A stretch of DNA of 64,000 bases from Octopus vulgaris (taxonomy: Eukaryota). The translations under genes were made by a program, and so were the position numbers. The notes beneath the pieces were generated by a model. It saw only the letters and a list, made by a program, of their open reading frames with translations. It was not told the DNA's origin and did no database searches. This document shows positions 1-64,000 of this stretch, piece by piece (the stretch's first letter is position 1; every line of letters starts with the position of its first letter). The DNA lies in assembly GCA_951406725.2 (NCBI GenBank), contig OX597827.1:74896001-74960000 (forward strand), read 5' to 3'.

Positions 1-277
1 CTGCCTGCCGAGCGCGACACCTTTACCGTTTACAGTTCCAATCCTGTTAGCGCAGTTGTGGTTATTATTTAATTATGACATCACTCATTTAGAGGTACCA
101 TTTGTAAGATTGTGCAATCACCAGTATTTTTATTGTGACACCATCACTAGGTGAGTTGCTAGTCAAGGCTCTGATAGTCCACATCTACCTTATGTACAGT
201 TTTTAGTGTCATTCTCGTTCATTCCAATGTTTTATATTTTTATATTTGACATTTTCACTCCTGGGAATTTTTGTTAA

Positions 278-495
278 GGCAGCTAGCTGGTAGAGTCGTT
301 AGCACGTTGGACGAAATGCTTAATAGTATTTCACCCATCGTTACATTCTGAGTTCAAATTCCGTCGAGATCGACTTTGCCTTTCCTCCTTTCGGGGTCGA
401 TAAATTAAGAACCAGCGGAACACTGGGGTCGATGTATTTGACTAGTCCCCTCCCCCAAAACTTCAGGCCTTGTGCCTTTACTAGAAAAGATTATT
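278..495 (+). mobile_element. tRNA-derived SINE (octopus-type); paralog at ~50333-50550, inverted relatives at ~44660-45105 and ~63190-63640
   Basis: A-box-like AGCTGGTAGAGTCG, B box GAGTTCAAATTCC, simple-repeat tail; dispersed copies on both strands. Confidence 0.7.
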
Positions 496-1435
496 GTTGT
501 TGTTGTTGTTGTTATCTCAACTGAATCACAAGTGTCGAATCGTCGGCGACTAAACCAGCAACTCCACAGAACCTGCTCTGTGGAGAGTGTATTTTTCTTT
601 CTATTTGCTAACCCTTCAGGATGAAATACAAGGCCTGTTGAAGAGTAGATGAACTCAGGGTAGTCAGCTGTCACCTACACAGCAACTTTTCATTAGTTGT
701 GCATCCGATTAGATCATTCCCGCTCAGAAATAATAAACCAGATATAACAATAATAGAAAAGGAAAGGCGAAGTTGCTTACTAATTGATCCATCGTGTCCG
801 TTCGATTCCAGGATTGTTAAGAAAGAAGAAAAACATTTTAAAATCCAATCCTTTAAAATTTGAAATTGCAAGAATTTGGAGCATGAAATATGTAAAAGTT
901 GTGCCTGCAATAATTGGTGCATTAGGATCTGGGAGTAAGGATATAGATGAATGGTTGGAAGAGATTGGAATAGAATGTCCTGAAGAGCTTCCACAGAGAG
1001 TTTGCCTCTTAGGGACAGGAAAGATTATCAGAAGGGTTTTCAGCACTTGAAAGATTAACGAAAGCTTGAGGATATATAAAGTTACTGGTTGTAACCCATT
1101 ACCCACATAAATTCTAGCAAGAATAAGAACGAACCTGAGTCAAATAATATCTTTTATTGTTAAAGAAACAACAAAAGAGTCGATTTCGCAAGGACAAATT
1201 AGAAAGCGAAACAAAAAAATATACTTCAAAAGAAAATCCTAAAGAGAGTAGGTTGACAGGGTAATTTTCAGTCAAATGAGGAAAAGAATTACACTAGGCC
1301 AATCACAGAAGGCCAGATAAATTCTGGCAGGTGAAGTCCTAACATAAAATTCGTCCATAAGTGATTTGAACTAAATATATTCACTTTGAAATTACTTCAT
1401 AATTCCAATGGTATAATCAGTTGTTTCATACTCAC

Positions 1436-1567
1436 ATTCTTGACAGCTTTTACCCCGATATCCAGCAACACATCCATGAGCACAATGACCATAAACTGGG
1501 TTGCAAGTGTCGTTAATACAATGACAGTTGTGATGACATTCATCTCCATATGTGCCTTTAGGGCATA
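1436..1567 (-). CDS. Exon A1 of multi-EGF gene; CPKGTYGDECHHNCHCINDTCNPVYGHCAHGCVAGYRGKSCQE
   Basis: 132 bp; polyT-cag acceptor, gtgagt donor; phase 1-1; within ORF 1392..1592. Confidence 0.9.
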
Positions 1568-2352
1568 CTGAAAAAAACCCCAGAAGAAACACGTTTTAAC
1601 TTACGAATTTATTGTTGCCTTTTAAATATCAGTAACATAATATTACTGGCATCATAGTCGACACCAACTGAAGACAGAAACATATTCTTTTGCAAATTTC
1701 ACAGAGTTTTCCTGAAGCTTCCAGATGGTTTGTTTCGTTCACAAGTCTTGAATCAAACCAGGACTTTCACAGAAGATATTTGCCAAACTTTCTTTGCATC
1801 AAAACCGAACCTTAAACAGGCTAAACTAGCTTCTTAATAAATTAACCAACCCAAAACTAAAAATGTATAAGACAGACGACTATTTCAAGCAATTAGTTAG
1901 ATGTCTTCAGGCACACAATCTTCTGCCATCTCCCTCCTTAGTACACACTGTGCGACTCTTGCGTACTTTGTTATCTTCCCTGTTAGCACACATTCTTCGC
2001 CCATGTTAGTATACTATGTAGTCAACGTTGACAATACATGTTATTACTTCCCTTGTCATCACAAGTTGCCGTTCCCTCTGATGTACCCCTAGCTGTACCC
2101 CTTGTTAGTATACTTTGTTATGTTGTTAGCTTAGGCTGTTGTTTCTCTAGTTTGTATATCTTGTTGTCTCCCTTGTTTTTATATTTTGCTGAAAAAGCAA
2201 GTACATTGTTAGTACACTGTTCCATGTCACACACAGTACTGTCACCCTTGTTGGTAATCTTTGCTATATCTTGTATTAGCATCTCAGAATACATAACTAA
2301 AAAGAGCAACAATTGCAATACACAATGACAACAGAAAGCAAACGTTATTAAC

Positions 2353-61000: not shown

Positions 61001-61041
61001 CACTAGAACGGTGGTGGCGCCGATGATCTTACCCTCTCACC

Positions 61042-61166
61042 CTCTCTCTCTCTCTCTCTCTCTCTCTCTCTCTCTCTCTCTCTCTCTCTCTCTCTCTCTC
61101 TCTCTCTCTCTCTCTTCTATATATATATATATATATATATATATATATATATATATATATATATAT
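61042..61166. repeat. (CT)n(TA)n microsatellite
   Basis: Direct reading; the paralog at 8831-8943 has a much shorter CT tract. Confidence 0.95.
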
Positions 61167-63857
61167 CAAGATATATAGGGAGAGTTTATGAAAAAAACAA
61201 AAGACGAAGACAGGTGGTGTACAAAACAAACAGATGTATTAGTATAACGCTCAGGAATAGAAAGAATCCTTTACGTTTCGAGCCTACGCTCTTCTACAGA
61301 AAGGGACACAGCAAAAAAACAAGGAGTGAAAAAAAATGTTTATATATATATATATATATAACGGATATATATATATATTTCTTTTCTTCATGCTGTGAGA
61401 GCCCTCCTCACTAGCACTAAGTTTTGTGTTTGTGATTGGTTGTTATTGCTTGGGGTGTTTTCTTTTTTGAATTGTTGCAGTGGTGCTAGTATTGGTGGAG
61501 ATGGTTGTAATAGCAGTGGATGTGTTGGTTATCGTAGTACAAGAGAGGTTGGCGTTACTCTAGGTGTGTTTGTGGATGTTTTGAGCATATTTTCGAGGAT
61601 TTTTGTGTGCGTTGGCAAGGGGAATGATACTTTATGCTTTTTATGTTTCTTTTTCAGGTGGGGTTTCTCCCTCGTTTTCACTTTGTGTTGCAGAGGTATC
61701 AGTATCTGTAGAATCAGAGTGCAAGTCTGTATGTATTTGACCTTAAAGGAGATGGAATGGGGACAGGAGAGGCCGGGCTTCGTTGAAAGGGACACCCTGA
61801 GTGTCGGGTGTATGTTATAATTATTCTTTCTGCTGAGGGTGGTGGTGGTGGTGCATCTGTTACTCACGTTATTGGTATTGTTGATGTTGTTGTATTCCTT
61901 GGTTTCTTCCAGCATTTGCAGACTTTGTTGTTCTTGTTGATGATGCTGTTGTTTCCAGAGTTGTTGCAGCCTTTATTGTTGTTCACTGATAGCTGACTTG
62001 TGGCCTACCGGGACATGTTATTGACAATAAGTAGGCCCTATTGTTCCCTATCTTCTGTTTAGAAGAGAAAGCTTTCTAGTGGCCAACCCCTCAACCTCCA
62101 CGTAGGTGGTGCCATGGCCTTCTAACATCAACTGTAAGATGCAGCAATTCTTCTCCAAGAATACCAAGGAGATCTGGGATCTTGTGGATTGTGTCTGGTT
62201 TAATGTAGAGTAGTACCTTCACACTAATCCCAGACCAATTTCCATGACGGGTTCGCTTCACCTCCAGGCGGCTGTTATTCCCTCCCAATACGACGCACGC
62301 TAAAATCCACCATAAATTTAACTCAGGTGGAATTCTTGAGATCTTCACTCTCACAGTCCTCCTTCCTAATACGATGGATAGAGAAGATGTTTTTCGCTCC
62401 GACAGGGAGCTATAGAGTATTTGACGGCCAGAACTTCAATCTTGAAGAGCAATCAAATACCCACAAATTGCTTGGCTCTCGAGATGTGCTGAATGTCGGA
62501 TATTATTTCTTTCTCCAATGTACGGACACTGAATTATTGCATGCAAGACGGTTTCGTCGCCCTGCATGCATCTCAAGCAGGCTCGGCTGTTGGATCTTCC
62601 ATGCCTGAAGAGTTATTCTCTAACAGGCAATGTCTCACTGTAGTACTGCTATACCAAAGACTTTTAGAAAGTGTCTATGATCTTCGACCCGAAGATCTTC
62701 TGTCAAGGCCTAGATTCAATCCTAAACCATCATCGCTCACACCCTCAACTAGCCCAACGCCCCAGAAATCTTGAGGTGTTTTCCCGGTAACGGTTTTGTG
62801 CAGCTAATGCAATTCAATGAGTTCCTGGCAATATTCTAGATGCCAAATACTCAACTTTGGTCTTCGTTTGATCCACGACTAGAGTTCTGTCAACAAGAAA
62901 TGCTGCAGAAAAGCTCGTTCTTATTTTCCCTGCCATCGTTCACATCATCGCTGTGATTTACATATCTCTGTAGGTGATACAGCTTTAAGACTTGGCACCT
63001 CATCCTCAAAGATGTCATCCCAAGACCACCACAGTGTGAATGCCGGCATCAATTGGTTTTTCTGACCATAACAATCAAAAAAGTAAGCGCTCCAATCTGG
63101 TCTAGGTTGTCTTAGGACAGGTACGACAGTTAGGTGATAGTACACCACCGAGGCAATATATGCATTTGCTATAATGATAATGATTATTTCAAATTTAGGC
63201 ACAAGGCCAGCAAGATCGGGGAAGGGAGTAAATAGATTACATCGACCCCAGTGTTCAACTGATACTTAATTTATTGACCACGAAATGATGAAATGGCAAA
63301 TCGACTTCGACGGAATTTGAACTGAGAACATAAGGTCGAACGAAAATGCTGCTTAGTATTTTACTCGGCATACGAATGATTCTACCAACTCACCATAATA
63401 ATAATAATAATAATAATATATAAAATAATAATAATAATAATAATAATGATAATAATAATAATAATGATGATGATGATGATGATGATGATCATGACGACGA
63501 CGACGATGATTTTGCAACAAGGGCAGCAAGTTTGGGGTAGGTGATGAGTTGATTTCATCGACCTCAGTACTCAACGACTACTTACTTTATCGACCCTGAA
63601 AGGATAAAAGGCAAAGTCGACTTGGGAGTAATTTGAATGTAAAGAAGAAGAAGGAGGAGGAGAGGAGGAGAAGTAGAAGAAGAACCAGAACAACAACAAC
63701 AACAACAACATGATCATCTTTATCATCATTAAGATATTCATGTACTGAGTGCATTAGATACGGAGAGGTAACTTTACCTGTGTGGGTGTTACTTCCACAA
63801 ATTCTAGGATGTTAAACATGTCTGTTGTTCACATTTACTTCCCTCAGTTTTCCTTAA

Positions 63858-64000
63858 TCTCTTATTATAAAAGGCAGATTTTATCTGCCTCCCTTTGTCT
63901 CTTATAGAAATCTACAATATAGGATTTCTTCAATTACAATTTACCTAGCATTTTTAAGAGTAAAATGCATCGGGTCGTGCCAGGTCCAGTTTTTAAAATT
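63858..64000 (+). mobile_element. 5' end of a probable Helitron-like element, copy-3 specific
   Basis: Colinearity breaks at A|TCTCTTATTATAAA; the body matches 20084-20175. Confidence 0.5.

Follow-up and report, generated by a model that had tools for sequence, protein, structure and literature searches.

The window analyzed here, a 64,000-nucleotide stretch of Octopus vulgaris DNA, carries on its minus strand eight exons that each encode an EGF-type module. Every one of them has AG/GT ends and phase 1-1, and the open frame, the splice sites, and the pattern of eight cysteines are kept in all eight. The exons were recomputed and are listed in Table 1 with high-to-low coordinates in transcription order. 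The order B3-A3-C2-B2-A2-C1-B1-A1 proposed by a sequence-only reading of this DNA was reproduced exactly, and its 357 open codons (exon sum 1071 nt, zero stops) and seven junction codons (V, F, K, A, F, Q, V) were recovered as well. A six-frame search of the whole window with a profile of the eight exons returned the same eight with E values of 1e-18 to 1e-20; no ninth EGF exon was found, and nothing else scored below E 4.5. Likewise, sliding divergence windows across the whole stretch gave no other exon-like peak, and the intron windows of high divergence that were checked are microsatellites or alignment edges. Apart from the exons, long open reading frames either belong to transposon remnants or match no family, and neither Rfam families nor tRNAs were found in the window. 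A bacterial promoter scan of positions 1-1500 was disregarded, as such a scan is not meaningful for octopus.

Table 1. Exons and repeat copies in the window, with the net charge of each module and its amino acid differences from the O. sinensis model named in parentheses (for P0007, from the positional counterpart)
Feature	Coordinates	Strand	Net charge	Differences	Remarks
Exon B3	55017-54883	-	+3	1/44 (P0005)	135 nt; one eight-cysteine EGF-type module
Exon A3	54061-53930	-	+4	0/43 (P0005)	132 nt
Exon C2	46115-45981	-	+3	4/44 (P0005)	135 nt; third member of basic triplet B3-A3-C2
Exon B2	35832-35698	-	0	9/44 (P0007)	135 nt
Exon A2	32104-31973	-	-3	6/43 (P0007)	132 nt; one N-glycosylation sequon
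Exon C1	17872-17738	-	-5	4/44 (P0007)	135 nt; third member of acidic triplet B2-A2-C1; one sequon
Exon B1	2487-2353	-	-1	1/44 (P0007)	135 nt
Exon A1	1567-1436	-	-1	8/43 (P0007)	132 nt; one sequon
Repeat copy U1	1..26936				Operational cut; 14.1 kb alignable to another copy, remainder largely copy-specific transposons
Repeat copy U2	26937..48357				Operational cut at ATT microsatellite; 17.2 kb alignable to another copy
Repeat copy U3	48358..63855				Operational cut; U1/U2 homology stops near 63855 at a dispersed repeat

Self-BLAST of the window reveals three collinear copies that share kilobase blocks with 86-97% identity. The repeated unit had been taken to be C-B-A, but the outgroup O. bimaculoides carries a single B-A-C in the order lectin-D-B-A-C-E-TM (P0012, one database model), and the unit is therefore B-A-C. 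A cassette length of 22-30 kb proved too narrow, because like exons lie 19.2-33.3 kb apart, a spread that results from copy-specific transposons. Each unit supplies three eight-cysteine EGF-type modules and, because all exons are phase 1-1, each extra copy stays in frame and adds the 134 amino acids originally proposed. The suggestion that both window ends fall inside further copies survives only in part: an upstream C exon is seen solely via O. sinensis P0005, and the flanking C exons are absent from the window. The final ~150 nt are repeat with a partial match to 20084-20176, and in the shortest copy the equivalent of base 1 lies 3.9 kb ahead of the next C exon.

As had been noted for the transmembrane (TM) exon, the lectin, D, and TM exons are absent between the units. 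In tblastn searches of the window, the lectin segment of O. bimaculoides gave zero matches at E<=1, and the D and TM segments gave only noise (E~0.5). These comparisons support an array that is part of one gene and not a cluster of separate genes, as P0005 is one predicted protein and none of these exons intervenes. Thus, the intragenic half of the earlier "accordion" interpretation stands, whereas its picture of simple lengthening overlooks an exon divergence that is driven by selection.

Protein architecture and octopus counterparts

The gene is best read as a molluscan fucolectin-like/multi-EGF (SCARF-like) receptor; it would be a large gene of which the window covers the middle part. By best match its orthologue in O. 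bimaculoides is P0012 (named in UniRef as a fucolectin tachylectin-4 pentraxin-1 domain-containing protein), which has the same order of B, A, and C but only one B-A-C, compared with at least four B-A pairs in the array of the window gene. Residues 442-578 of P0012, the orthologous B-A-C, match Tie2 186-321 (E 8.9e-11) and SCARF1 (E 5.5e-5), and the EGF regions of human SCARF1 (8HNA) and Tie2 (2GY5) are built from the same module type as the octopus exons. Pfam scans of single exons gave weak matches in 2/6 scanned, all below cut-off, including a laminin-EGF match for C1 (E 0.003).

Ahead of the EGF chain, P0005, P0012, and P0025 carry a galactose-binding/fucolectin-like domain (PF22633, above cut-off) whose exon lies outside the window, and Foldseek on the P0012 model returns F-type lectin domains as top matches (E 9e-11 to 2e-9, target TM-score mostly ~0.8). 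Canonical F-type lectins bind fucose through the motif His...Arg-x-Asp...Arg. When aligned to FBP32, P0012 has Ser in place of the His and lacks the Asp, and P0005 and P0025 read as P0012 does at these positions. A single TM helix, also encoded outside the window, is present in P0012 only (hydropathy peak up to 3.3 from 621-631; predicted helix 626-646). This chain stops three residues past the TM helix and may be truncated; at its N-terminus a helix is predicted at 2-24, but the threshold of the hydropathy scan is not reached there. The assigned domains are supported by an AlphaFold model of P0012 with a mean pLDDT of 70.5 and a pTM of 0.41 (EGF chain 94-96; residues 103-240 below 50). Overall, the encoded product would be a type I membrane protein with a putative signal peptide, an EGF-like region, an F-type-lectin-fold domain, a chain of eight-cysteine EGF modules of the Tie2/SCARF type, and a single TM helix.

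Relatives P0096 and P0121 have the same lectin region with a TM plus PTP, the cytosolic domain type of the subgroup 1C/SudRes1-type receptor tyrosine phosphatases. A set of 16 related proteins ranges from 1 to 15 motif matches, and blocks of one to five modules are duplicated internally. Engulfment receptors of the MEGF10/Draper/CED-1 type carry an EMI domain at the N-terminus and are not known to have a lectin domain. Assignment to this type was rejected, as P0012 and P0005 have the lectin domain and no EMI Pfam match. Names of the kind "MEGF6/10-like" in the databases denote similarity.

In O. sinensis, P0005 presents lectin-D-B-A-C-B3-A3-C2 in one predicted protein; the chromosomal order of the four octopus models is deduced from their matches to exons and introns. 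The series B3-A3-C2-B2-A2-C1-B1-A1 can be recognized there as well, so the core array is common to both species. Copy number may vary between alleles, as originally proposed, but the only indication that copies differ is a C1-like exon that occurs a second time, in partial form, in P0007 and could be an assembly duplication. By a hand tally, amino acid differences from O. sinensis number 33/349 in true exons versus 2/129 in mistranslated introns (p 0.002). In the O. sinensis annotation the array is divided between two models padded with translated intron. Because the gene is thus broken into fragments, it would probably escape genome-wide scans for selection. Searches of homologues and of cluster-representative proteins yielded no transcript or octopus protein spanning the whole array, and a short-length search scored 0/1 candidates.

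Exon divergence among young copies

The three copies differ by 3.2-3.7% in their introns and by 7-26% in their exons. For the three copy pairs, exon versus intron mismatches are 61/402 versus 388/12108, 60/265 versus 349/9451, and 57/265 versus 414/12525, and the exon excess is significant in each (Fisher p<1e-21). The copies are young and about equally old, with 124/121/118 private intron changes, and two copy-specific LTR pairs show differences of the same order as the introns (23/576 and 18/607).

The codons were compared across 131 columns of the eight exons. Amino acids vary at 61 columns versus 13.3 expected at the intron rate (maximum 28 in 3000 simulations), and silent-only changes occupy 3 columns versus 3.4 expected in simulation. 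When A3 and B3 are left out, 41 variable codons remain against a simulated expectation of 10.1 (maximum 19). Only one of 42 scaffold codons carries any nucleotide change, and every cysteine is retained. Pairwise dN is 0.095-0.37 versus dS of 0.033-0.16, and the overall omega (M0) is 3.7-4.0 (p 9e-5 to 4e-3 versus omega=1). Model M2a is preferred to M1a in all four settings, including those with multi-nucleotide changes (p 2e-11 to 2e-6), and places ~41% of sites at omega 13-21. These tests used custom code and star trees, which gene conversion between copies would violate. On this sequence evidence, positive selection has pushed the exons of the young copies apart.

The changes are unevenly spread. 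B3 is the most derived copy (27 private nucleotide changes versus 2.2 expected), A3 has 17 such changes, and B1 and B2 taken singly do not exceed the intron rate (p 0.07 and 0.63). Both B3 and A3 are nearly unchanged relative to O. sinensis, and thus the selection on them represents a past burst. Their triplet B3-A3-C2 is also the furthest from P0012 (23, 23, and 19 amino acid differences). It is basic and aromatic, with a net charge of +10, and the adjoining B2-A2-C1 is acidic, with a net charge of -8. Variable sites of A do not coincide with those of B or C (p 1.0 and 0.40), so a single shared binding face is not indicated; those of B and C do coincide (p 0.014).

Candidate functions and related systems

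We consider it probable that this gene encodes an EGF-repeat receptor whose young modules are binding surfaces diversified by selection from parasites or microbes. Unequal crossing-over would have copied the B-A-C block at least four times, as the anatomy of the array suggests. In the young copies, amino acid changes were then fixed at non-scaffold positions, with cysteines kept and silent sites evolving at the neutral rate. By analogy with the basic patch with which SCARF1 meets anionic ligands, the EGF modules themselves may serve as binding surfaces, in which case each new triplet would add one specificity and push the lectin domain outward. On balance, a parasite or microbe would be the driver, either as the ligand or as an invader that enters through the receptor.

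In a broader proposal, octopus recognition diversity would be built inside one receptor, with cassettes added, each selected to a distinct basic, acidic, or neutral surface, and reshuffled by conversion, copy-number change, and exon skipping. This is possible but doubtful. If true, a single locus would encode an immune or self-recognition receptor that is both polymorphic and multi-specific. The literature searched, which covered few subscription journals, held neither a single-receptor diversity system for cephalopods nor a paper on this octopus gene.

The same structure and the same selection could also reflect a partner of the same species, through gamete recognition, sexual conflict, or self/non-self discrimination, possibly with pairing of basic and acidic triplets. 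The opposite charges of the neighboring triplets (+10 and -8) fit this idea, and omega exceeds 1 in the repeat ectodomains of abalone VERL, oyster bindin, and Hydractinia Alr. We nevertheless regard it as unlikely: no reproductive role was found in the literature searched and, in the available portions of the snail reports cited below, the closest match in architecture is tied to parasite resistance in two species.

Another proposal, which could add to the diversified-receptor explanation, is that the phase 1-1 exons are skipped and combined to give many isoforms per allele. Any subset of exons would remain in frame, and the donors of B1 and B2, which begin with GTTAAT, are weaker than the A and C donors when judged by eye. 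In Dscam-type arrays, exons of the same class are clustered and one is spliced into each transcript. Here the classes are interleaved as B-A-C, so a mutually exclusive array of that kind was rejected, and a splicing toolkit in general seems improbable.

Interchangeable spacer triplets might instead merely set the distance of the lectin domain from the membrane, with copy number being what matters. The in-frame 134-amino-acid unit and the widely varying module number among relatives are compatible with such a role, as is the EGF loss in a resistant snail haplotype according to the available text of PMC12297450. This explanation is quite improbable, because spacers would be neutral or conserved, yet omega is ~4 and 61 codons vary versus 13 expected; the unit order is also common to O. 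sinensis. Of the original copy-number picture, intragenic lengthening is retained, but the copies are not interchangeable, as their exons have diverged under selection.

Explanations without positive selection, in which the exons are hypermutable, or are old and have introns homogenized by gene conversion, are largely refuted and very improbable. Exon mismatches are indeed rich in transversions (58 ts:120 tv versus 662:489 in introns), 46/122 differing codon pairs differ at two or three positions, dS reaches 0.13-0.16 for the B3 and C pairs, and a mutator has been proposed for conotoxin exons, as far as the available text of PMC3862624 indicates. However, under hypermutation 13.7 codons should show silent changes only, with never fewer than 5 in 2000 simulated runs, and 3 were observed, although without A3 and B3 this null is rejected only at p 0.022. 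Codons with a single change are not transversion-biased (14:19, p 0.22), and a mutator mechanism, prompted by the transversion excess, was rejected by these single-change and silent-codon tests. Furthermore, kappa and neutral branch length do not differ significantly from intron values (2dL 3.5 and 3.0), and intron divergence does not rise beside exons. LTR ages agree with intron divergence, which also counts against these explanations. The data did not support templated conversion, whether the source was another exon class or non-exon sequence of the window; no donor tract could be recognized in the other exon classes, the longest shared run being 14 nt.

An assembly artefact, pseudo-exons, or separate genes, as the two O. 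sinensis models and the lack of a spanning transcript might suggest, are barely credible, given that the copies bear their own transposons with target-site duplications, that frame, splice sites, and eight cysteines are intact in 8/8 exons, and that three equidistant copies at 3.2-3.7% are not two haplotypes in a species with 1.22% heterozygosity (PMC10700109, available portion).

Symmetric EGF exons are commonly duplicated, in other members of this family too. What is unusual is that young intragenic copies have exons several-fold more divergent than their own introns while silent sites are neutral, a pattern that points to recent arms-race evolution of a recognition protein and suggests repeats reshaped to recognize changing targets such as parasites. 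Among molluscan recognition proteins, abalone VERL and oyster bindin also have tandem repeats with selection on some of them, but their domains differ from the octopus EGF modules, and most VERL repeats are homogenized whereas the young octopus exons diverge. Snake venom PLA2 is another exon-accelerated gene. In conotoxins, exons outpace introns while the cysteine frame is kept, as in the octopus gene (PMC3862624, available portion); those, however, are separate genes for secreted toxins, and here repeats diverge within one membrane receptor.

In SCARF1, arginines of the EGF modules bind anionic ligands, and the accessible part of that report (PMC11563577) describes no lectin-fold domain and presents the basic sites as conserved across species, two points of difference from the octopus gene. 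The closest systems are the single-pass receptors of Biomphalaria that combine a galactose-binding/fucolectin domain with multiple EGF modules. As described in the available portions of the two reports, these include the SudRes1 RPTPs (PMC12297450) and, as the same receptor type, the LG5R "potential scavenger class F-like" subgroups 1B/1C (PMC13712769), and loci for schistosome resistance in two snail species encode this architecture. In the same portions, these receptors combine, as P0012 does, a lectin-fold domain with Tie2-like EGF modules and a single TM; they also have a signal peptide, to which the predicted helix at 2-24 of P0012 may correspond, and their haplotypes show extracellular diversity and differences in EGF number. 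Diversity in Biomphalaria, as those texts present it without dN/dS values for EGF exons, lies among paralogous genes and haplotypes, whereas in octopus it lies between young repeats of one gene, whose introns serve as a built-in clock. The octopus locus thus offers three natural triplet variants that can be compared side by side, and it points to the EGF stalk, besides the lectin tip, as a candidate selected binding surface.

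Repeat structure of the window

Eight EGF-type exons are arranged in transcription order as B3-A3-C2-B2-A2-C1-B1-A1, where letters denote the exon class and digits the copy. Each encodes eight cysteines, and their alignment has 14 invariant columns out of 44. When spliced, they form an open frame of 357 codons whose junction residues are V, F, K, A, F, Q and V; this reproduces the minus-strand exons and reading frame of the sequence-only reading. No further EGF-type exon turned up in the window, whose G+C content is 38% and in which microsatellites and transposon remnants are abundant. 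Self-BLAST of the window places the repeat unit in three collinear copies (operationally cut as U1, 1..26936; U2, 26937..48357; and U3, 48358..63855), with about 14-17 kb per copy alignable to another copy. Like exons are actually 19.2-33.3 kb apart, rather than recurring in a 22-30 kb cassette as was first proposed. Toward the right end, the copies cease to be homologous near 63855, where a repeat lies. Also, over the 100 intron bases immediately following each A exon, the three copies do not differ at all, although about five variable columns would be expected; this may reflect a splicing element or chance.

Features of the window, with positions where assigned
Feature	Position	Strand	Details
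EGF-type exons (n = 8)		minus	135 or 132 nt; AG/GT ends, phase 1-1
LTR retrotransposon, U1-specific	9637-15258		Minus-strand matches to RT, RNase H and integrase, 14384-12267; target duplication of 4 bp; site unoccupied in U2 and U3; LTRs mismatched at 23/576 sites
Mariner-type DNA transposon	9806-11095		Bounded by terminal inverted repeats, with TA duplication; lies inside one LTR of the 9637-15258 retrotransposon; 251-aa transposase ORF, 10097-10852
U2-specific element	32695-35467		607-nt direct repeats (18 mismatches) around ~1.6 kb; looks like a non-autonomous LTR element
DNA transposon	38871-40314		13-nt terminal inverted repeats, 8-bp target duplication; ISXO2/IS1595-like transposase (E 5.6e-14); consistent with Merlin elements
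LINE	22352-26933	minus	RT and zf-RVT matches, TAA tail; adjoins ATT microsatellite; similar to TAA-targeting Dong/R4 elements
LINE-related fragment	22834-23689		Common to 47519-48378
Dispersed repeat	63855-64000		Replaces the sequence at the same U1/U2 site; part recurs at 20084-20176
Identical intron bases after A exons	1336-1435, 31873-31972, 53830-53929		

Divergence and selection between copies

Aligned intron sites show 388/12108, 349/9451 and 414/12525 mismatches between copies (3.2-3.7%), against 61/402, 60/265 and 57/265 in exons. Single exons diverge by 7-26% in bases and by 8-20 out of 43-44 residues. The introns are equidistant, with 124, 121 and 118 private changes over 7575 columns. 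Two copy-specific LTR pairs have diverged by 4.0% and 3.0%, and thus the intron clock has apparently not been reset.

Selection tests on the eight exons, implemented in custom code with star trees, gave, under all four codon-model settings, an overall omega of 3.7-4.0, with about 41% of sites falling in a class at omega 13-21. Of 131 codons, simulation with the intron mutation spectrum predicts 3.4 to vary only silently and 13.3 to vary in amino acid; the observed counts are 3 and 61. A hypermutation null forbidding only stops and cysteine loss predicts 13.7 silent-only codons, with a minimum of 5 in 2000 runs. By hand tally, 33/349 residues differ between the window and O. sinensis in true exons vs 2/129 in intron stretches mistakenly translated in protein models (p = 0.002). 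The three-exon block, or triplet, was duplicated in frame and is young, and amino-acid change has been selected on a fixed disulfide scaffold. Furthermore, net charge is coherent per triplet, at +10 for B3-A3-C2 and -8 for B2-A2-C1.

Most of the exon change resides in B3 (27 private bases) and A3 (17), where about two are expected in each. When both are dropped, a strong excess remains (41 amino-acid-variable codons vs a neutral expectation of 10), but the hypermutation null is rejected only at p = 0.022. Taken singly, B1 and B2 show no significant acceleration, and the only significant overlap of variable columns is between B and C. For B3 and C pairs dS is 0.13-0.16, although fixing the neutral length at the intron value gives a model that the data do not reject. 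B3 and A3 nevertheless barely differ from their O. sinensis counterparts, a pattern resembling a burst of change and subsequent constraint. Comparison with O. sinensis also reveals mosaic patterns, which suggest that some conversion may have occurred between same-class exons of different copies.

Octopus relatives and gene identity

Of 519 candidate proteins, 47 are retrieved by a profile of the window exons. Octopus models come nearest to exon B2: 84% for P0005 and P0007 (both O. sinensis) and for P0025 (O. vulgaris), and 64% for P0012 (O. bimaculoides). P0012 carries an N-terminal helix, an EGF-like region, a lectin domain, modules D-B-A-C-E (D and E being further EGF-type modules) and one transmembrane helix. 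P0005 is ordered lectin-D-B-A-C-B3-A3-C2, with 1, 0 and 4 differences from window B3, A3 and C2, and P0007 continues the series as B2-A2-C1-B1-A1 (9, 6, 4, 1 and 8 differences). These module orders make the repeat unit B-A-C, instead of the C-B-A read initially, with at least four B-A pairs. Because of these orders, and because lectin, D and transmembrane segments have no meaningful match anywhere in the window, the array is predicted to be intragenic, as had been proposed. Further copies had also been placed at both window ends; flanking C exons are not visible within the 64 kb, but P0005 does have an upstream C.

Positions 113-176 of P0007 comprise a second, partial C1-like exon and then translated C-to-B intron, matching window 7737-7591 and 42560-42411, which may point to an additional unit in O. 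sinensis or to an assembly duplication. The last B-A pair of P0007 is nearly identical to the first P0005 pair (2 differences each), and window A1 is unlike it. The window itself most likely belongs to the O. vulgaris/sinensis group. PMC10700109 dates the divergence from O. bimaculoides to ~34 million years ago and that between O. vulgaris and O. sinensis to 2.5 million years ago; PMC13093632 supplied no nuclear divergence figure that could be used. If the single unit of P0012, which is one model, is right, the duplications date between these splits.

Possible roles and known systems

Unequal crossing-over would be the duplication route, one mRNA would include all exons, and the EGF modules themselves may bind. 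A pathogen-driven role for the receptor is modestly favored, the main rivals being a reproductive or self-recognition role and a splicing toolkit. That octopuses possess, in this one locus, a modular recognition system seems doubtful.

The lectin domain of the octopus models has an F-type fold but neither the His nor the Asp of the fucose motif. A MEGF10/Draper orthologue is ruled out by domain content and a Dscam-type array by exon layout. The B-A-C region matches the EGF regions of Tie2 and SCARF1. For SCARF1, modified-LDL binding needs arginines on EGF modules, and teichoic acid competes (PMC11563577). In its architecture the octopus receptor agrees with subgroup 1B (1C, should phosphatase exons follow) of the scavenger-F-like receptors that lie under a B. 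glabrata peak for schistosome resistance (PMC13712769). The SudRes1 receptors of B. sudanica, for which EGF loss is reported in a resistant snail (PMC12297450), match this layout as well.

Internal duplications occur in other family members, with periods in modules of ~1-3 (P0086), ~5 (P0006), ~2 (P0013) and ~4 (P0002). Since such duplication recurs in relatives, the accordion as such is characteristic of the family. Exons evolve faster than introns in snake venom genes. This is also reported for conotoxins (PMC3862624). Neither the octopus gene nor selection between its repeats turned up in a literature search of incomplete coverage. The receptor is of a known molluscan type, here with recent intragenic triplet duplication and strong diversifying selection between the copies.
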